Source of the DNA: Heteronotia binoei | Taxonomy: Eukaryota | Reading direction: 5' to 3' | Length of the DNA stretch: 64,000 nt | Assembly: GCF_032191835.1 (NCBI RefSeq) | Contig: NC_083230.1 | Span: forward strand, 80,910,001 to 80,974,000 | In this document: piece by piece, positions 1,469-57,697 of the stretch | Layout: every line of letters starts with the position of its first letter | How positions within the stretch are numbered: the first letter of the stretch is position 1 | The notes under the pieces: generated by a model | What the model saw: only the letters and a program-made list of their open reading frames with translations | The model's database searches: none | What the model was told of the DNA's origin: nothing | Position numbers and translations under genes: made by a program

Positions 1469-2699
1469 TTAAGGTCGGATAGGGTCTTTAGTAAATTTCA
1501 GAGTCAATGGCTTTCCTGGGACTGGCTGTGCTTTCCAGTGATCTGCTGCTTGCTTTAAATGAGACCAATGGATCCACGTTGCTACTCCTTGGACCTTGAC
1601 GGCTGTAGGAGAACTTAAAAGGACAGTAAAGGGGCCCTTCCACTTAGGCTGTTAGGCTGCCCTCCAGCTTTTAACACACACACTGTCTCCTGGCTGGTAA
1701 GCATGTACAGGAAAATAAATTTGATATGGCAGAGTCTCAAACACATACCTATTCACATCTTTTACAGCTTTGCCCAAGGCTTGCAATTCCTCACAAGTTA
1801 TGAGGCTCCCCAACTGTGAGAGGTTGCCTCAAACTCCTTGGACTATGGGGTCTTCCCATAACTGCTAGGCAATCATGTTCCAATTCAACACCAGGAGTTG
1901 GCAACAGGGAGACTGGGTTCAGAGTTGACACAGTCACTATTTTCACTCTGGGATTTTCACACATAAGTGCTTGATATCTGACCATGCAGGCATTAGTGAA
2001 CCAATAGTTCCCTTTGTGCTCAAGAAGTTTTGCATGTAGTGGAGTACTTTTACTTCAAGTTGACTCCCGAAGGTAAACTTCCTTACCTTCTGCTTCCTTT
2101 ACAAGTTTTGCTACAGCTGCTATTGGACACATACAGTGTGCTACAGTGTCCAGCTGCTTAGACAAATATGGCCGGGGCCAAGATCCCAGCAATTGAGTCA
2201 AAATGCCTGCAGCTACTCCTCCTTGCTCATGTACATACAGAGTAAAGAGCTTTTCGGTATTTGGTAATCCCAGGGCTGGAGCCTGCATGAGCTGGCGCTT
2301 CAAGGCTTCAAGGTTTCAAAAGCATCCTGACATTGCTCTGTCCATTCAAAGGATGCTTTTTCTCCCCCCTTTGTGGCTTCGTACAGGGGCTTCGCTGTTA
2401 TAGCAAAATTGGGGTCCCCAATTCTGCAGAACCTGGCAGCCCCTAAGAATTCTCTCAGCTGGCGCCCAGTAGTGGGCACAGGAATAGCACACAAAGTCTC
2501 TTTTCGCTCCCTGCCTACCTGCTATCTGCCCTGGGACACATGGAAAGATACAAATTTCACTGTCTCTTGGCACAGCTGAGCTTTTTTTCTGAGACACTTT
2601 ATACCCAGCCTCAGTTAGGAGCGTTAGCAAAGTAGCGGTGATTTCTTGGCAGGTCTGTAAGTCTTTGGCCCCTATCAACAGATTATCACAGTTCTTTGG
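1469..2699 (-). pseudogene. pol: ERV pol remnant: RT from the YxDD region through the connection domain, joined to the integrase C-terminus
   Basis: DNLLIGAKD..LLTEAGYKVSQKK; PTTGRQLREFLG; APALGLP..FTLYVHE; RYQALMCENP; then HAYQPGDSVCVK..PKWKGPFTVLLSSPTAVKVQGVATWIHWSHLK, with the stop at 1469-1471. Confidence 0.9.
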
Positions 2700-4377
2700 T
2701 TTTCGCCATGCAGTCCTTGCCCCCAAACAGCCCCTCTGCCTCTCATAGATGGCTGCCCACCAAAGCCGCTGCTTTTTCATCTTTCTTTCTGCCTCCCACT
2801 TCTGGTCTACATCCCGATTGGCATAAACTTTCTGGGCAATCTCTAGCAGTTGGAATAAATTCATGCTGGCAAAGATGTCTTGCTTCTGGAGCTTTTTGTG
2901 GATGTCAGCATAGGCTTGAGTGATAAAAGCTGTATTCACCATGCACAAGTTTTCTGCAGCCTCAGGACTGAATGGAGTATACATTCAAAATGCTTGCATC
3001 AAGCGCTCAGCAAAAGCTCCGGGGCTCTCATCTGCTTTCTGGAGAACTTCACTGACTTTGGACATAATAGGCTTCTTGCCTGCCTCTTTCATTCTCTCTA
3101 AGATTGCCTGCCTGTATTCTGGTAGATGCTCTTTGGACTCGCAGCCATTGGGGTCCCAATTTGGGTCTGTTGCAGGAAAACGGGGCTTTATCCACTCTTT
3201 TCTCTGCAGTTTCTGGGGGGACTTTTCCTTCTACATGTTTTTGGGCATAATGCAGGATGAGGCTTCTCTCCTCTGTTGTAAAGAGGACCAGTAAAAGCTG
3301 TTGACAGCCTGCATACGTAGGCTGATGTGTAGCCATAATACTGGTTAGTAGATTTGTCATTGGGGCAGGATTGTCAGAAAATGCAGCAGTATGGGTTTTC
3401 CAATTTACTAGATCACTTGAAGTGAAGGGCACATACATATATCAGGTCTCAATGCTGAGGCCAGGTTGTTGAGGGATGTGAACTTCCCGAAGGGGAGCTA
3501 GCAGTGAGCCCTCTGTGCCAGATATAAAACCCGGAAAAGTTGAGGAGGAGACCGTGGAGGAGCTGGAAGTTTGCTCAGTGCTGGGAGAGAGTTTAGTATT
3601 GGAGGAAGGCTCTAGGGGTGAATTAAAATGTGCAGCTAACCTCTGGCTATTAGACACTGGCATGGAGTAACGGGAGGCTGTTGCATGAAATGATCATTTA
3701 GAAAACAGTTGCTGGATTGGATTTAAAGTTCGCAGGGATCTTGTTTGCCCTTTCACAGCCCCAGCTCCCTCATTCGCCTCTGCTTTCTGGTTCTCCTCAT
3801 CAAAGGATTCTGGAGCGCCTTTAACTAGCTGCGCTTGGCTCTCACCATCAGCCTTGCCTTCCGCTGCCCCGGCACCTCCTCCAGCTGGCGGCATAGGAAG
3901 AGGTGGGTATGCTGGGACATATGGCGGGGGACTGGCGAAGGGGTCTTCAGGTCCAGCATTTAACACTGGGGGCTTTTCCTTCTTTGCAGGATAAATTGTT
4001 TTTATTAACACATCCTGGCACAAAGCCATAACTTGACTTGCAGCTTTATCAGCGGCCCTCTAAGCCCACCTCTTTTTCATCCTCTGCAACTTTTCTGGCC
4101 GCCAGTAAGACTTCTGCACCATTGCTGCTCAACTGTCAATGTAGGGAAACCGACTTTCGTGACTCAGGGACTGTACTTCACTTTTATAAACTTGATGAAC
4201 CAATCCTTGGTCAAAGCTACCCTCGGGCAGCCATTCTACATATAAGATCACCCAGTCTTCCTGACATAATGCTTTCAAAGTTTAGGGAGTCAGTTTGACT
4301 CTGTAATCATCACAGATATATTCCTTGAAGTTTTTACACATGCATTCTAATGGAGTTTTTAACTGATTTCCACCCAT
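2700..4377 (-). pseudogene. gag: ERV gag (MA, PPPY late domain, CA, start of NC)
   Basis: ATG at 4377 gives MGGNQLKTPLECMCKNFKEYICDDY..., like HERV-E matrix; PPPY at 3919-3930; capsid motifs YVPFTSSDLVNWK, QPTY.GCQQLLLVLFTTEER and YTPFSPEAAEN. Confidence 0.9.
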
Positions 4378-7789: not shown

Positions 7790-8492
7790 AAGCCTACACA
7801 CCACTGGATAATGCACTTTCAATTAACTTTGCAACTGGATTTTACTGTGTGAATTGTCAAAAGAATCTGTCTGCAAACTATCACTAAAGTGCATTGAAAA
7901 CAGGGCTGCCAAGCCCCTGGCCCCGGCAGGGATTTCCCCACCTAGGAGGTTCCCAACCCACTGTCCCACTTTGGGCTGGCAGGGAGAATCTCCCCCGACG
8001 TTGCGATTATGTCACCCGGAAGTGATGCCATTGTGCTGTTGTTGCCGTCTATGATACAATAGGTGCCATAGAGGTTTTCCCTCCCAAATGGCTAGAGCAT
8101 CCAAGAAAACCATAGTGTTTTCCCAGAAACGCCTAGAGTGGCCAATAAGCGATGGCGACAGCACAATGACATCACTTCTGGGTGACATAATCACAATGTC
8201 GGGGGAGATTCCCCCTGCCGGCCCAAAGTGGGCCAGCAGGTTGGGAACCTCCCAGGCAGGGGAATCCCTGCCTGGACTGGGGGCTTGGCAGCCCTATTTT
8301 CAATGCACTTTAGTGATAGTTTGACCGGCTACACGCGATGTTGCTGGCGCAATGATGTCACTTCCAGGCGACATCTGGAGAGGTTCCCCCCACCGGCCCA
8401 ATGAAAGTCCCCTGCTGGAGAACGCAGGGGACTTGGCAACTCTAGTTGAAAGTGGATTGAAAGTGCATTATTCAGCATGTGTGAAAGCACCC
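7790..8492. mobile_element. Composite foldback DNA element (Harbinger-like MITE ends around hAT-like palindromic arms)
   Basis: Ends ggataatgcactttcaat / ttgaaagtgcattatt...gcaccc; internal imperfect palindrome at 7874-8323. Confidence 0.55.
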
Positions 8493-8859: not shown

Positions 8860-8989
8860 GTTCTCCGGTGGTCCGTGGTAGTGGGATGGTCCTGAACTGT
8901 TGGGAGTAGGCTCCTCCTCCGGAACAGGGTCATTGATCGCTTGATCCGGCCCGGGGGAGGGGCCGCTCCCTTAGGACCCCTTCAGTCCA
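8860..8989 (+). repeat. DIRS left inverted terminal repeat
   Basis: 8880-8989 is the reverse complement of 14351-14460 (110 bp, one mismatch at 8887). Confidence 0.97.
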
Positions 8990-9354
8990 AACGGCCCTGT
9001 TGAAAGAACAGGACGTGTTCGCTGTGCCTGCGAGGCACGTTGATCAGAAAGGAAGAAAATTTCTTTGAAGGCCCCTGCCTTTTGAATTCAGCAGCAATCG
9101 AGAGGCGGGCAGGGAAGTTTCGCCGTCAGCGTTAGGCTTTGCCTAACAAAGAACGGCTTGTGAGTCGGCTGCCGCGGAGAGAGGGAAACGAAGGTCGCCC
9201 CGTTCTATGCCTGCTCTGGGCGTCTGCGTGAGCGGCAGAGCCGACAGTCTGGTCCCACGCAGCGCCGGTGGCGTATTGCAGACGACCAGAGCCCGGTTTT
9301 TACCTGGCTGAAGACTTTGGCGAGTGCTACAGACAGCGGTTTACTCGTGTGGAG

Positions 9355-9666
9355 GTAAGCTGTCTGGGAGAGAGAGCGGGAAGCTCTTCGGGTTGCGCTC
9401 TGCCTCTATTCTTGGGACGGGCTCTGCTGTAAGGAGTACAGCCCACCCAGGAGCTTTGCAGCCGGGTTTTTTCCCGCCTTCCTGCAGGGAGTGGATAGAA
9501 CGTTAATTAACTCAGCCTCTCCTTTCCAGACACGCGGTGCGTGGCCAGGAAGGGAGGGGGGAGGTCGGGGTTGGCTTGTTGTCGCCCTGTAGGGGTCGCC
9601 ATGGCAGGCTGTTAACCTGGGAATGGCAGTTTCCTTTCCCCTTTTTTGTGTTCACTTTCGTTTCAG
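9355..9666 (+). other. Predicted intron in the DIRS 5' leader
   Basis: Donor GAG|GTAAGC, branch-like GTTAAC near 9611, long pyrimidine tract ending TTTCAG| 17 nt before the ORF1 ATG. Confidence 0.55.
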
Positions 9667-9683
9667 CCTCCTGTGGAGTGGAG

Positions 9684-11051
9684 ATGGCTGACGAACAGGG
9701 ACAGGGGACAGGCTCAAACAGCGACTTCTCCATGCCTAAGTACTCTGGCTCAGCTTCTGAAAAGGATCGTGAGGATTCTGAACCGGACTTATCTGGAGAG
9801 AATGCCAAGCTGAACTTACTTGCTTGGTTAAAAAGGGAACTTACCAAGGAATTTGCCCCGGCCCAAGGCACGGCTGTGCATACTCACTCTCAGAAGAGGA
9901 AGAGGCAAGCAGGTTTGGATTTTGCCACGGCCCCTACAGACCCTAAGAAGGCAAGATTGAGTAAGGGCTTGGAGTCTCCTAGTGATAGCTCGCAGGAGGA
10001 AGAGGAGGTTGCTTCCTCGGTGGACTCTTCTGCTAGAGAGGAGGGAGAACTCTCTGAGGAGGAGGATGATACTCCCTCTGTACAGTCTAGGGTGTTCCCA
10101 GTGGAGTATTATTCTAAGCTCCTTCCTAAGGTCCTGAGAGAACTGGACTTTACAACCACACCCAAAGAGAAGGCAGAGTTAGACCCGGACTTACCTTCAG
10201 GGTCGGGGAAAATGATGCCCAAGGTGGGGGTTTCCCAGACCGGGGTACCCTTGCCCGCTCCCTTTTTTAGCCTGATTAAAGCAGAATGGGAGCATCCGGC
10301 AAAGCCAAAATCTAATCCACATTTGTTTCCCAAACTGTATGGTTTGAGCCCAGAGGCTACTAAGCGTCTGAAATTGCCCCTAGTGGACGATCCTGTAAAT
10401 AGTTTGTTATCCACATCAGTGCTGCCTATGGATGCAGATGGACTCCCTAAGGATGCTTGTGACAGGCGGATGGAACAGGCTTTACGAAAAAACTTTGAAG
10501 CTTCGGCTTGGTCCATCCGGGCTTCTTCGGCGGGCTCCCTGTTTGCTCGTGCAGTTTATACCTGGGCTTCTAACTTGGCGTCAGCAGATAGTGATGCACC
10601 GAAAGAGTTCAAAGATGAGCTCAAGAAAATAGCCCTGGGCACAGCATTTATTGCAGATGCGACCTTGGACGCTATGCAGTTGTCTGCTAGGGCAGTGGCC
10701 TGCAGTGTTGCAGCACGCAGGAACGTCTGGCTTCGAACTTGGGATGCCGATGCAGCGGCTCAGGCCAGGTTGGCAGCTGTCCCGTTTAAGGGTGTTAGTC
10801 TCTTCGGGGACGAATTGGAGCGCTTCCTGATTGAGGGGAAGGACAAGAAGAAGGTTTTGCCTTCTAAGAGGAAGGACTTCAAGTCTAAGAAGCCTTTTCA
10901 GCCCTTTCGGGACTCTAAGAAGTTCTCTCGGCCCGCGTCGTTCAAGCCCTTTCGAGGGAAGTGGCAGTCTCGCAGTAGGGATACCAAACCCTTCTCTAGC
11001 CGTGGTGACAAAGGAAATAAGAGTGACTCCAAAAAGGGAGGGTCACAATGA
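9684..11051 (+). CDS. DIRS ORF1, Gag-like (455 aa; LAP2alpha-like C-terminal region)
   Basis: Intact ORF from the ATG in GAGATGG; acidic/Ser-rich N-terminus, then motifs typical of vertebrate DIRS Gag (LPLVDDPV..L, PKDACDRRME..LRK.FE, AARRNVWLRTW.AD). Confidence 0.88.
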   Translation: MADEQGQGTGSNSDFSMPKYSGSASEKDREDSEPDLSGENAKLNLLAWLKRELTKEFAPAQGTAVHTHSQKRKRQAGLDFATAPTDPKKARLSKGLESPSDSSQEEEEVASSVDSSAREEGELSEEEDDTPSVQSRVFPVEYYSKLLPKVLRELDFTTTPKEKAELDPDLPSGSGKMMPKVGVSQTGVPLPAPFFSLIKAEWEHPAKPKSNPHLFPKLYGLSPEATKRLKLPLVDDPVNSLLSTSVLPMDADGLPKDACDRRMEQALRKNFEASAWSIRASSAGSLFARAVYTWASNLASADSDAPKEFKDELKKIALGTAFIADATLDAMQLSARAVACSVAARRNVWLRTWDADAAAQARLAAVPFKGVSLFGDELERFLIEGKDKKKVLPSKRKDFKSKKPFQPFRDSKKFSRPASFKPFRGKWQSRSRDTKPFSSRGDKGNKSDSKKGGSQ

Positions 11052-12951
11052 CTATGCCACAGGGCCAGAACTGCTTCCTATTGGAGGGCGGCTTCAGTTT
11101 TTTGCAGCTCGATGGGAGGCTTCGGTTGCAGACCAGTGGGTGATCGACACGGTCTCCAAGGGCTACGCCTTGGAACTGGAATTCTTCCCACGTCGGAGGT
11201 TTCGTCCAGTCCTGAGGAAACAGGATCCGCTCAAGCACCTAGGGATGCTGGGTGCTATCCAGCATCTTTTGGACATCAGGGCCATAGAGCCGGTACCCCA
11301 AACTCAGAGGGGTCTCGGGGTGTACTCCATCTTGTTCCTGGTTCCGAAGCAGAATGGCGATACACGGGCCATTCTGGACCTGAAGTGGGTCAACCGTTTT
11401 GTCAAGACCAAAAAGTTCAGGATGGAGACTTTACGTTCCATTCTCTTGGCGGTGCAGGAGCGAGAGTATCTGACGTCAATCGATCTGTCCGAGGCTTATT
11501 TGCACGTGCCCATTCGTCCAAGTCACCGGCGGTTCCTCAGGTTCGCCTACGATGGGAAGCACTTCCAATACCGGGCCTTGCCTTTCGGGCTCAAGTCTTC
11601 CCCGCGAGTGTTCACGAAGATCATGGTGGCATTGGTGGCTCATCTACGGATGGGGGGCGTGGCTCTTCATCCGTACCTGGACGATCTGTTGGTCAGAGCC
11701 GCTTCGCATCAGCAGAGTCTGGAGGACACCGAACGGACAGTGCAGGTGTTGCAGGACCACGGGTTTGTGGTCAACAGAGAAAAAAGCAACCTTGTTCCCA
11801 CGCAAGCGATATTGCATCTGGGTGTCCTGATCGATACTCAGAGGCACAGAGTGTTTTTGTCGGAAGGACGACAGGTGAAGCTCAGGTCCTTGCTGGAGGA
11901 GGTCTTGGCGTTGACACAGGTTCCTGTGATGACTCTAGCGAAGTTGTTAGGGGTGCTGGTTTCTTGCCAGGATGTGCTGTCTTGGGCGCGTTTCCATCTA
12001 CGGCCCCTACAATGTTTTCTGATTCCCTTTCAGCACGTGATAGCTCGCAAGCGGCACAGGCTAGTGATTCTTCCGCCGGAGCTCCGGCGGCAGCTCCAGT
12101 GGTGGTTGGAACCATCCCGTTTTCAAAAGGGGGTCGCGATGAAGGAGCCACAGAGGATAGTGGTGACGACGGATTCCAGCCTTTCCGGATGGGGAGCGCA
12201 TTCTCAAGGGGCGATGTGTCAAGGTCAGTGGTCTCCACTGGAGGCCCGGCAGAGCATCAATCTTTTGGAGCTGCGGGAGATCCGGCTAGGGTTGTTACGC
12301 TTCCAGACTTCGCTACAGGGACGTCACGTGTTGGTAAAGACGGACAATGTGACAGCAAAAGCCTATGTCAATCGACAAGGCGGGGCCAGAATCAAGAAAC
12401 TGTGCAACGAGGCCAACAGTCTGCTAAATTGGGCAGAGAGGTATCTCTTGTCCATAAAGGCGGTGCACGTAGCCGGAAAGGACAACGGGCTGGCGGACTG
12501 GCTCAGCCGGCAGCGGCTGGATCAGACGGAATGGTCTCTGGACACGAGGGTTTTCCAGTCTCTTCAGCGCAGATACGGCAGAGTATCGGTGGACTTGTTT
12601 GCCACTCCGGACAATCGTCAGGTGCGGCGGTTTTTTGCCAAACAGTATCACGATCAGGCGGAGGGCGTGGACGCTCTCAACTGCGACTGGCCGGACGGCC
12701 TGTTGTACGCCTTCCCGCCACTACAACTGATTCCCCGGTTGGTGAACAAAGTTCGTCAACATTCTGCGGAGCTGGTGTTGATAGCCCCCTTCTGGCCGAG
12801 ACGGGGGTGGTTTCAGGATCTACTACGGCTGTCGACGGAAAAGCCTTGGCGTCTCCCAGTGTCCGAGACGTTACTGACGCAAGGGACAGTGCTCCATCCT
12901 CAACCAGACATGCTGCAGTTAACTGCGTGGAGGTTGAGCGGGCGCAGTTAG
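10831..12951 (+). CDS. DIRS ORF2: reverse transcriptase, RNase H and DAM-like methyltransferase domain
   Basis: GGRLQFF..W, RAILDLK, SIDLSEAYLHVP, YRALPFGL, YLDD at 11674-11685; RNase H TTDSS..GWG, INLLEL, TDN, LADWLSR; MT motifs DLFA (12592) and YAFPP (12706). The 10831 start is a TTG; the first ATG is at 11245. Confidence 0.96.
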   Translation: MRGRTRRRFCLLRGRTSSLRSLFSPFGTLRSSLGPRRSSPFEGSGSLAVGIPNPSLAVVTKEIRVTPKREGHNDYATGPELLPIGGRLQFFAARWEASVADQWVIDTVSKGYALELEFFPRRRFRPVLRKQDPLKHLGMLGAIQHLLDIRAIEPVPQTQRGLGVYSILFLVPKQNGDTRAILDLKWVNRFVKTKKFRMETLRSILLAVQEREYLTSIDLSEAYLHVPIRPSHRRFLRFAYDGKHFQYRALPFGLKSSPRVFTKIMVALVAHLRMGGVALHPYLDDLLVRAASHQQSLEDTERTVQVLQDHGFVVNREKSNLVPTQAILHLGVLIDTQRHRVFLSEGRQVKLRSLLEEVLALTQVPVMTLAKLLGVLVSCQDVLSWARFHLRPLQCFLIPFQHVIARKRHRLVILPPELRRQLQWWLEPSRFQKGVAMKEPQRIVVTTDSSLSGWGAHSQGAMCQGQWSPLEARQSINLLELREIRLGLLRFQTSLQGRHVLVKTDNVTAKAYVNRQGGARIKKLCNEANSLLNWAERYLLSIKAVHVAGKDNGLADWLSRQRLDQTEWSLDTRVFQSLQRRYGRVSVDLFATPDNRQVRRFFAKQYHDQAEGVDALNCDWPDGLLYAFPPLQLIPRLVNKVRQHSAELVLIAPFWPRRGWFQDLLRLSTEKPWRLPVSETLLTQGTVLHPQPDMLQLTAWRLSGRS

Positions 12952-13976
12952 TTAGGTTGGGGTTTGACTCCACAGTGATTGACACTATGCTGGCCTCTAG
13001 GAAGGGGTCTACCACTAGGGTGTATAATAACACTTGGCGGGTGTTCTCTCGTTGGTGTGACGAAAGGGGATGGGATCCCTTGAGGTTACCTGTCCGGAAG
13101 CTGTTACTGTTCCTACAGGAGGGCTTGGAAAAAGGGCTGGCCACTAATACTCTTCGTAGACAGGTGGCAGCTATTGCGGCGGTGCGTGGAACTAAAAAAG
13201 GGGGTTCTTTGACACGGCACCCGCATGTTAAGCGTTTTTTAAGGGGGGTGTCCTTGTTAAATCCCCCTACAGCGCATAGGTTTCCTACCTGGAGGTTAAA
13301 CGTGGTGCTGAAGGCGTTGTGCCATGCACCTTTCGAGCCCATGGCCACCTGTAGTCTGAAGGATCTTACTCTTAAAACGTTGTTTTTGGTGGGGATAACT
13401 TCGGCCCGCAGGGTATCTGAGTTACAGGCCCTATCAGTGGATAAAGACCTCTGTACCTTTCACAACGACAGGGTGGTGTTGAGACCTGATCCGACGTTTG
13501 TTCCCAAAGTGAATTCAGTTTTTCACCGTTCTCAGGAGGTGGTCTTACCCTCGTTTTGTCCTAATCCCAAGCACGAGAGGGAAGAGGAATGGCACTGACT
13601 GGACGTAAGACATGCCTTGAGTTTTTATATAAATAGAACCAAGGATTTTCGGAGGTCGGAGTCCTTGTTTGTTTCATTTTCCTCCCCCTCGCTGGGGAAA
13701 CCAGTTTCTCCCTCAACTCTGAGCAGGTGGTTGGGGCAGTGTATTTCTTCTGCTTATGCAGCTTCAGGGTTGGAGCCTCCAGGAGGCGTCATGGCTCACT
13801 CCTTACGGGGGGCGACTACTTCTGCAGTATACAAGTCCTTCTCATACCTAGAAAGCATCTGTAGGGCAGCTACCTGGAGTTCTGTCCATTCATTCACCAG
13901 GCATTATAGGGTGGATAGGTGGGCAGCGGCTGAGGCGGCCTTTGGTCGCAGGGTGTTACAGCAAGTCATACATTGA
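11112..13976 (+). CDS. DIRS ORF3: tyrosine recombinase with a long N-terminal extension overlapping ORF2; interrupted by one in-frame TGA at 13596-13598
   Basis: YR domain from about 12930: ASRKGSTTRVY..W..F, TSARRVSEL (about 13398), HSLR (13797), catalytic Tyr in RHY (13905). 13599-13976 continues in the same frame. Confidence 0.93.
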
Positions 13977-14015
13977 AGGTAGTGGCCCGCCCAGGGTACA
14001 TATTGCTTTTGTATG

Positions 14016-14122
14016 TCCCAACAGTTCAGGACCGTCCCACTACCACGGACCACCGGAGAACGGAAGATTGGAAGCTCTTACCGTGAAGCTTCCTTCTCGG
14101 TGGTCCTGGAGTGGGACGGTCC
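14016..14122 (+). repeat. DIRS internal complementary region (ICR)
   Basis: 14016-14060 is complementary to 8861-8905 (one mismatch); 14061-14122 is complementary to 14448-14509 (perfect). Confidence 0.97.
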
Positions 14123-14350
14123 ATCCCACCCGGTGTGGTACCTTCCTCTAGGCAGATAGCAATGTGAATTAGTCGCGGGAGGTACTGGGGCACTGGGGGC
14201 GAAGGTTTGTTATCTGACTGTTTACCGTTACTTTGGCTGGTTGCAGTTATTAAAATGGAGTTGCATCATGATGGTCTCCGCGTGGTTTGTTCCTATGATG
14301 CAGAGTTTTGTTTTGTAGATTTATGCCGGTGGGGGAGCATGGCTGTTCTA

Positions 14351-14511
14351 TGGACTGAAGGGGTCCTAAGGGAGCGGCCCCTCCCCCGGGCCGGATCAAG
14401 CGATCAATGACCCTGTTCCGGAGGAGGAGCCTACTCCCAACAGTTCAGGACCGTCCCACTCCAGGACCACCGAGAAGGAAGCTTCACGGTAAGAGCTTCC
14501 AATCTTCCGTT
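14351..14511 (+). repeat. DIRS right ITR plus right extension
   Basis: Inverted copy of the left end, followed by an extension that matches the ICR and ends in GTT. Confidence 0.97.
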
Positions 14512-56920: not shown

Positions 56921-57697
56921 CTCTCTCGCTCTCGGGTTGACTTCGCGAACGAAGATTTAAGAAGGGTGCAGTAGTCCACGTCTGCTGCAGGCTCGCTGGT
57001 GGCTGACAAGACCAATGCGGGACAGGCAGATCCGGCCACAGTGGCTGCAGGGAAAAGTCTGATTTGGGTTTGGTGCTGTAGCAGTGCGATTCTTCCTCAA
57101 TCTCCTTTTGTCCTCAAGACCAGCTATGCGTGCGTTCTCAAAGGAAGAGACAGCCTGGTGGATGGTGTGCCTCCATGCTTTGCGATCTGAGGCTAGGTCA
57201 GACCACTGGTGATGGTTGATGCGACAGGTGCCAAGGGATTTCTTCAAGGAGTCCTTGTACCTCTTCTTTGGTGCCCCTCTATTTCGATGGCCGATGGAAA
57301 GTTCGCCATACAGAGCAATCTTGGGAAGGCGGTGGTTTTCCATCCTAGAAATATGCCCTGCCCAGCGCAGCTGCGTCTTCAACAGCAGTGCTTCGATGCT
57401 TGTAACCTCCGCCCTCTTGAGGACTTCAGTGTTGGTCACAAAGTCACTCCAGTGGATGTTGAGGATGGTGCGAAGGCAGCGCTGATGAAAGCGCTCGAGG
57501 AGTCGCAGGTGATGACGGTATAAAACCCACGATTCGGAGCCGTAGATGAGGGTTGTCATCACAACCGCTTTGTAAACATTGATCTTTGTGCCTTTTTTCA
57601 GGTGCTTGTTGCTCCACACTCTTTTGTGCAGTCGGCCAAATGCACGGTTTGCCTTTGCCAGCCTGTTGTCGATCTCCTTGTCAAAGGAGACAAGGAG
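56921..57697 (-). mobile_element. Young 5'-truncated RTE-clade LINE (not BovB; resembles AviRTE-type elements)
   Basis: Uninterrupted ORF2 C-terminus (DKEIDNRLAKAN..YGSESW..QLRWAGHISRM..C-x2-C-x12-H-x3-C zinc finger); 3' hairpin cttcgttcgcgaag; GA-rich tail; 9-bp TSD atcaatagt (56912-56920, 57698-57706). Confidence 0.92.

Follow-up and report, generated by a model that had tools for sequence, protein, structure and literature searches.

We analysed a 64,000-nucleotide (nt) stretch of the Heteronotia binoei genome (NC_083230.1, positions 80,910,001 to 80,974,000; hereafter the window), which carries a full-length DIRS1-like tyrosine-recombinase retrotransposon. On balance, we favour a model in which the overlapping open reading frames (ORFs) of this element would be expressed by stop-codon readthrough and a +1 ribosomal slip, together with trimming of the leader, and not by a switch between splice sites. 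Such a switch had been proposed in an earlier note on this DNA: one leader exon would be joined either to 9667, giving Gag, or to 11108, giving ORF3 from an ATG at 11112, in the manner of retroviral env. The note overlooked that gag and ORF3 lie in one frame with the TGA at 11049-11051 alone between them, as well as two leader acceptor motifs, at 9487 and 9529. Four things were read directly in the sequence: how the frames lie, the single stop with its context, the absence of an ATG in the reverse transcriptase (RT) frame ahead of its conserved N-terminal block, and the layout in relatives. The coding features are as follows.

9684-11051, + strand: ORF1, gag-like, 455 amino acids, with a LAP2alpha domain (PF11560, E 3e-19)
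11049-11054, + strand: gag stop TGA followed by CTA, the sole stop between gag and ORF3; candidate readthrough site
10831-12951, + strand: RT/RNase H/methyltransferase frame, +1 relative to gag; RVT_1 above cut-off
11052-13598, + strand: ORF3, in the same frame as gag, open across the entire RT overlap and stopping at a premature codon
13599-13976, + strand: remaining tyrosine-recombinase domain past the premature stop

A single stop codon between gag and ORF3

The gag start at 9684 aligns with a Met in 3 of 6 homologues, exactly the three that reach that far. Over the RT overlap of the window, about 21 stops were expected in ORF3, and none was seen. The first ATG of the RT frame (11245) lies downstream of its conserved GGRL..W..GY block, which starts at 11083.

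The layout was compared across 101 DIRS-type loci from metagenome and metagenome-assembled genome (MAG) contigs, most likely host DNA, which made 102 with the window. The conserved Trp anchor of RT was kept in 96 of the 102, and the 6 without it were dropped. A long ORF3 frame was present in 80 of the 96 anchored loci and not in 16. One stop alone, 46-199 nt upstream of the conserved Trp, separated ORF3 from a long gag frame in 56 of the 80; removal of 3 near-duplicates left 53 families, window included. The first ORF3 ATG lies at least 200 nt beyond the Trp codon, or is absent, in 21 of the 53, and the frame is nonetheless open: 3 to 20 stops were expected in the ATG-free stretch of these families, and only 0 to 27 of 1000 synonymous recodings stay open. 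Because the frame is kept open there, this stretch must be entered either from upstream or from a non-ATG start. At one locus (L077:788-4876), gag, ORF3 and recombinase form one ORF of 1364 codons. L044 is fused too, but its sister copies (L042, L053) are shifted, which leaves a natural fusion indistinguishable from a mutated copy. Two of the 7 long NCBI recombinase homologues, which are mostly gene-model chimeras, seem to pass from gag into the ORF3 frame, with Trp where the two meet (P0125, P0126); they are unverified models and were not counted. The bacterial MAG records among the loci (L081-L101) contain DIRS1-type elements most likely through host contamination, and two of them (L085, L091) are fish-like.

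The context of the gag stop

In the window the stop context reads UGA-CUA-UGC. The stop between gag and ORF3 is TGA in 35 families, TAG in 17 and TAA in 1, and it is followed by C in 30, G in 17, A in 3 and T in 3, thus by C or G in 47 of the 53. TGA-C occurs in 23 of the 35 TGA families and TGA-CT in 17 of all 53. Control stops were composed differently. ORF3's own terminal stop is TAA in 13 of 34 cases (p 9e-6) and is followed by C in 5 of 34 (p 1e-4), stops in the unused frame are TAA in 252 of 639, and codon use in the RT frame predicts C after TGA in 27%. Type II readthrough sites are UGA-CUA or UGA-CGG and type III sites are UAG-G (PMC3542737, PMC13517186); judged by their letters, the gag/ORF3 stop contexts match both types. 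An indirect trace was found in the RT frame, where an x-Asp pair is expected before GGRL because TGA-Y reads so in that frame: such a pair stands 5-20 residues before GGRL in 32 of the 35 closest proteins, versus 10 of 26 in a control window.

Similar sites are described in Sindbis virus (UGA-CUA), PSIV (UGA-CUA-UGU) and Moloney murine leukaemia virus (MoMLV) gag (UAG-G), each likewise a single in-frame stop before an enzyme ORF, and relatives of the window use UGA-C or UAG-G/C, like the type II and III viral sites (PMC3542737, PMC13517186). In contrast to the three viruses, the in-frame downstream product here would be the recombinase in place of Pol, short-range folds showed no clear 3' stem-loop or pseudoknot, and the site is predicted from sequence. 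We judge it probable that readthrough of the gag stop gives a Gag-recombinase protein. Occasional readthrough at TGA-CTA would then yield a Gag-linker-recombinase fusion, in which the 636-codon, Gly/Ser/Ala-rich overlap part of ORF3 might, as a weakly held suggestion, act as a tether that carries the recombinase into the particle.

Alternatively, ORF3 may be started afresh close to its beginning, whether the RNA is unspliced or spliced in the leader, by reinitiation past the gag stop or at an internal ATG, or CTG/GTG/TTG, over the Trp codon, with the leaky stop serving the +1 shift only. An NTG codon is forced at the Trp position in every family, ATG is mildly enriched there, and a slip-prone codon, from a set chosen post hoc, precedes the stop in 23 of 53 families. 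A common frame for gag and ORF3 is not needed for a fresh start, although it is present in 56 of 80 loci; no reinitiation element or promoter was identified, and L077 is a fused ORF. We consider a fresh start quite unlikely.

The proposed splicing to ORF3

Splice sites were scored with a frequency matrix whose values were not taken from a tool. The three motifs of the earlier note lie where it had placed them, with the donor at 9354/9355 and acceptors at 9666 and 11107. It had called them all strong, which holds for the donor (rank 1 of 363 GT sites on the + strand of the element) and partly for 9666 (rank 8 of 440 AG sites), and overstates 11107.

11092-11114, + strand: acceptor-like motif (AG 11106-11107) with ATG 11112; CAG at 11105-11107, 4 nt ahead of the ATG

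This acceptor ranks 12th of 440 AG sites, and equally good sites occur 2.35 times per kb per strand. It lies within RT codons for G-G-R-L-Q-F-F-A-A-R-W, where the T run encodes Phe-Phe and the AG spans Ala-Ala; ATG 11112, with T at -3, overlaps the conserved RT Trp codon. Among 20000 synonymous recodings of the RT-frame peptide, 7% matched the acceptor and 1.5% matched acceptor and ATG together. Across the 53 families, AG stands at the column homologous to 11107 in 6, and no RT column has a good acceptor in more than 7. ATG stands at the position equivalent to 11112 in 22 families, where codon use predicts 15 (z 2.3). Families with this ATG did not have stronger upstream acceptors (median of the best, -1.5 bits, n = 22) than those without it (-0.1 bits, n = 31), and a quick tree showed the ATG gained or lost between sister families. 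Of 155 close proteins, 130 had the Trp anchor and 42 were at least 44% identical; the residue before Trp forbids an ATG in 10 of these 42, including 3 of the top 5. The ATG was absent from all five fish-like loci, which are 54-69% identical to named fish RTs.

In retroviruses, env is expressed from a subgenomic message spliced from a leader donor to a downstream acceptor. The window shares with this system one strong, single dominant donor in the leader and an AG just before a downstream ATG, here 4 nt from the sole ATG within the first 700 nt of ORF3; the low rate at which acceptor and ATG arise jointly in recodings and the mild ATG enrichment also favour such splicing. It differs in two ways: DIRS1 families do not conserve the acceptor or the ATG, and in many of them (21 of 53) ORF3 stays open before any ATG, which the splice leaves unexplained. 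Pol is left unexplained as well, since a splice to 11108 removes the conserved GGRL block and so cannot supply it. None of the four joints found in RNA contigs lies at these sites, under cover too thin to count much. The claim of an env-like splice to 11107 was thus not borne out, as acceptor and ATG are not kept among distant families and show no link to each other, although the leader intron ahead of gag that the same model implied is plausible. We regard the env-like splice as unlikely; it could be a gain of this reptile lineage only. A message for the recombinase alone was also considered, and a suitable in-frame ATG lies within -90 to +45 nt of the recombinase domain start in just 12 of 40 families.

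Splicing from within gag could instead remove the stop, or all of RT, and fuse gag to ORF3 in frame. In-frame donor and acceptor pairs exist in the window, for example 10224 with 12572, and the final 300 nt of gag contain donors of at least 4 bits in 10 of 53 families, compared with 4 of 51 for mid-gag. They show no common offset from the stop and have no conserved acceptor column to join, and such splicing would leave unexplained both the stop context and the openness of ORF3 throughout the RT overlap. This route appears very unlikely.

A possible +1 shift toward Pol

Under the favoured recoding model, Pol would be reached from gag. Nothing interrupts the RT frame from the gag stop to GGRL in 52 of 53 families (28 expected), so this frame is entered at or before that stop. 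Two candidate sites lie near the end of gag.

10902-10910, + strand: CCC-TTT-CGG in the gag frame, inferred +1 site 1 (TTT-CG from 10905)
10947-10955, + strand: CCC-TTT-CGA in the gag frame, inferred +1 site 2 (TTT-CG from 10950)

Phe-Arg pairs in gag tails are written TTT-CGN in 21 of 31 cases, versus 9.4 expected, and 5 of 6 gag homologues retain Phe-Arg. A slip-prone codon before the gag stop, in a set picked after the data were seen, was found in 19 of the 35 families without TTT-CGN versus 4 of the 18 with it (p 0.04 for this post-hoc set). The influenza A virus site shifts +1 at UCC_UUU_CGU (PMC5009743). The window shares with it an in-frame UUU-CGN with an open +1 frame behind, and differs in that the motif follows CCC and is present twice. 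We give about an even chance to a +1 frameshift, at CCC-UUU-CGN (10902, 10947) or at a slow stop, that would produce Gag-Pol; this arm of the model is weaker than the readthrough arm.

Several observations weigh against the recoding model. TTT-CGN occurs in just 18 of 53 families and is missing in 35, and in influenza the shift drops by 40-70% when CCC replaces UCC (PMC5009743). Overlap length between gag and RT was tried as a pointer to the shift site and rejected: at 251 nt it does not locate the shift, because codon shuffling gives about that length (245 nt). A 3' stem-loop about 8 nt past the stop has been proposed for most type II sites (PMC3542737, PMC13517186). Over 70-nt windows in the 53 families, folding showed no peak peculiar to the 3' side of the stop, the window hairpin 3' of the stop was no better than shuffles (z -0.03 to -1.05), and an Rfam search gave nothing close to gathering scores. 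The leaky context could serve the +1 shift alone, and the mild enrichment of ATG at the 11112 position belongs on this side too. The layout was not seen in the remaining 24 of 80 loci, of which 6 are cut by contig ends and the others have a broken gag or another arrangement; gag lies in the RT frame in L031, L066 and L079 and in the third frame in L047, L058, L065 and L073, and L077 is the fused ORF described above. The 53 families were chosen for the single-stop layout itself, and they are related, so that the p-values are too small. Most relatives are 30-45% identical in RT, with no reptile element and five fish-like ones among them. Finally, the recoding model is a prediction from sequence. 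As a side observation, L031, L066 and L079 join gag to the RT frame across TAA-C or TGA-C, which may be an alternative layout or the result of single-base indels.

Splice signals in the leader

The leader ahead of gag contains the following signals.

9352-9360, + strand: splice-donor motif GAG/GTAAGC, cut at 9354/9355; best scoring donor of the element, candidate
9468-9487, + strand: strongest acceptor motif of the element, AG 9486-9487 (rank 1 of 440 AG sites)
9510-9529, + strand: further acceptor motif, AG 9528-9529 (rank 3 of 440)
9630-9666, + strand: pyrimidine tract and acceptor motif, CAG 9664-9666, 17 nt ahead of gag ATG 9684
9207-9311, + strand: upstream ORF of 34 codons, before the donor
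9601-9625, + strand: two upstream ATGs (9601, 9623) that the proposed leader intron would contain; the ORF from 9623 runs past the gag start in another frame

The best donor-acceptor pair of the leader (9355 with 9487) outscored 300 of 300 dinucleotide shuffles. A leader intron is plausible on this ground and because splicing to 9666 drops both upstream ATGs; since 9487 and 9529 outscore 9666, alternative splicing within the leader is possible. We therefore hold an intron before gag, from 9355 to 9487, 9529 or 9666, to be a candidate somewhat likelier to be used than not. It would only trim the 5' leader, giving a better message for gag, pol and recombinase, while unspliced RNA would be copied.

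A competing explanation is that all three motifs of the earlier note are unused by-products of base composition and RT coding. The donor score is equalled at 20 sites in 128 kb (both strands of the window) and was reached in 246 of 2000 leader shuffles; the score of 9666 was reached anywhere in the leader in 788 of 2000, and within 45 nt of the ATG in 64 of 2000. Among 12 other elements with a mapped left end, the leader pair reached p <= 0.05 in just 2 (combined p = 0.03), and intron sequence is present in contigs of RNA set X2. Against this stand the result of the pair in shuffles and the fact that the top donor and the top acceptor of 5.6 kb both fall in the leader, in the correct order. 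We take the by-product explanation as a minority possibility; it touches the splice motifs only and is compatible with readthrough.

Four of 6 RNA sets were compared with the element, two as contigs (X1, 458; X2, 411) and two as raw reads (X4, X5), of which about 6% of each run was sampled and the reads were mostly less than 95% alike to the element; of 1023 letter differences from it, the best 40 do not tell whether the proposed splice sites are invariant. The X1 and X2 contigs held 4 joints, none at the proposed splice sites and none of the GT..AG type, under thin cover. Depth over the donor region (9188-9575) was zero in X4 (48 reads) and X5 (153 reads), which are too thin to weigh. In the bin 9382-9575, depth fell to 0.07 in X1 and was 29.3 in X2, and nothing was concluded from this contrast.

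GAG/GTGAG donor motifs also occur in the leaders of three relatives (L091:254, L072:156, L024:2043); those of L091 and L072 fall within the left repeat or at its end. The right extension (14486-14494) carries ACG/GTAAGA, which scores second among the donor motifs of the element; the complement of this motif in the internal complementary region (ICR), at 14077-14085, is an antisense donor motif about 270 nt inward from the right repeat. In 10 of 30 elements, CTYACC follows ORF3 within 250 nt. In mammals, exons of TMPO/LAP2alpha and ZNF451 derive from DIRS1 gag (PMC4495291), and the acceptor inferred ahead of the gag-derived exon fits the leader acceptors of the window; those cases are host exonisation inferred for an ancient element and give no evidence on the element's own splicing. 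Reptile and frog gene models under host-gene names (P0009, P0014, P0016, P0121) contain DIRS1 sequence (RT, gag or recombinase), which hints that exonisation or mis-annotation is frequent.

Scope of the model

Extended across animals, the model would have long-overlap DIRS1 elements make one message with a three-way choice at the end of gag: termination for Gag, UGA-C or UAG-G readthrough for Gag-recombinase, and a +1 slip (near the gag end, at UUU-CGN or the stop) for Gag-Pol, with a leader intron separating message from genome. We put this generalization forward tentatively, at a little under even chances. DIRS1-like elements occur widely among eukaryotes and have multiplied in lizards, frogs and fish. 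If the model is true, a wide set of recoding sites in host genomes would be added to those known, the integrating enzyme would travel as a Gag fusion, and there would be a reason for keeping a second frame of about 600 codons open over RT. The conserved leaky stop would be an answer to how DIRS1 enzymes are produced that a reporter can test directly and cheaply.

The literature searched contained no account of splicing, readthrough or frameshifting of DIRS1, although Goodwin and Poulter 2001 and Poulter and Butler 2015 may mention an in-frame stop. The available parts of PMC3266345, PMC9210276, PMC7192593, PMC5633606, PMC6681497, PMC2685390, PMC5009743, PMC13003380, PMC12440569, PMC9341512, PMC8547959 and PMC4495291 contain no mechanism of DIRS1 ORF expression; the first of these describes the ORF overlap of DIRS1-like elements without one. 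For the tyrosine-recombinase ORF of Ngaro, a frameshift has been proposed (Poulter and Butler 2015, quoted in PMC13003380). That is likewise recoding for a downstream recombinase; however, Ngaro belongs to another superfamily and has a short -1 overlap at the RT end, while ORF3 of the window is in frame with gag (PMC13003380).

Architecture of the element and its surroundings

The termini and repeats of the element are as follows.

8860-14511, + strand: complete tyrosine-recombinase retrotransposon of DIRS1-like type, both ends GTT; other copies show loose ends at 14511 in RNA sets X1 and X5
8860-8989, + strand: left terminus and inverted terminal repeat (arm 8880-8989)
14016-14122, + strand: ICR, complementary to both element ends, with circular junction AAC at 14059-14061
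14351-14511, + strand: right inverted repeat and right extension

The left arm (8880-8989, 110 nt) is 99% complementary to 14351-14460, and the left end of the element pairs with 14016-14064 of the ICR. The GTT ends and AAC junction fit the NTT termini with a complementary 3-nt junction tabulated for DIRS elements (Table 3, PMC3266345). With the DIRS1-like elements described there (Dictyostelium DIRS-1, Anolis AcDIRS2, Xenopus XtDIRS2/3, TnDIRS1a), the window shares inverted repeats, ICR, NTT ends, gag, RT/RNase H/methyltransferase, a long ORF overlap and a recombinase at the non-overlapping 3' end. No structural difference from them was seen in that account; the single leaky stop and the +1 motif are the reading of the present analysis.

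Among named RT relatives, snake and lizard sequences come closest, at 46-53% identity. The RT-frame protein matches the methyltransferase Dam just under cut-off (E 7e-6), and RNase H is not among its domain matches but is present (PF17917) in full-length homologues. The recombinase matches Phage_int_SAM_1 below cut-off (E 0.009), is matched at the same place in relatives by tblastn, and is 40-56% identical to DIRS recombinase regions. This copy is broken, because its recombinase domain is cut by the premature stop at 13596-13598, a stop that the X1 and X2 RNA contigs do not have. Broken as it is, the element is otherwise an ordinary representative of the DIRS1-like superfamily (PMC3266345, PMC9210276). 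Viral contigs were searched as well and held no relative of the window RT or gag.

Directly upstream of the element, a 166-nt inverted repeat pair (7874-8323, 89%) is probably a small non-autonomous transposon. Degraded retroviral gag p30-like pieces (PF02093) and a weak RT-like piece lie in several frames on the minus strand at 2346-4029. Also on the minus strand, at 56957-57559, a 200-codon ORF without a Pfam match has what we take to be a resemblance to the C-terminal end of ORF2 of a long interspersed nuclear element (LINE).

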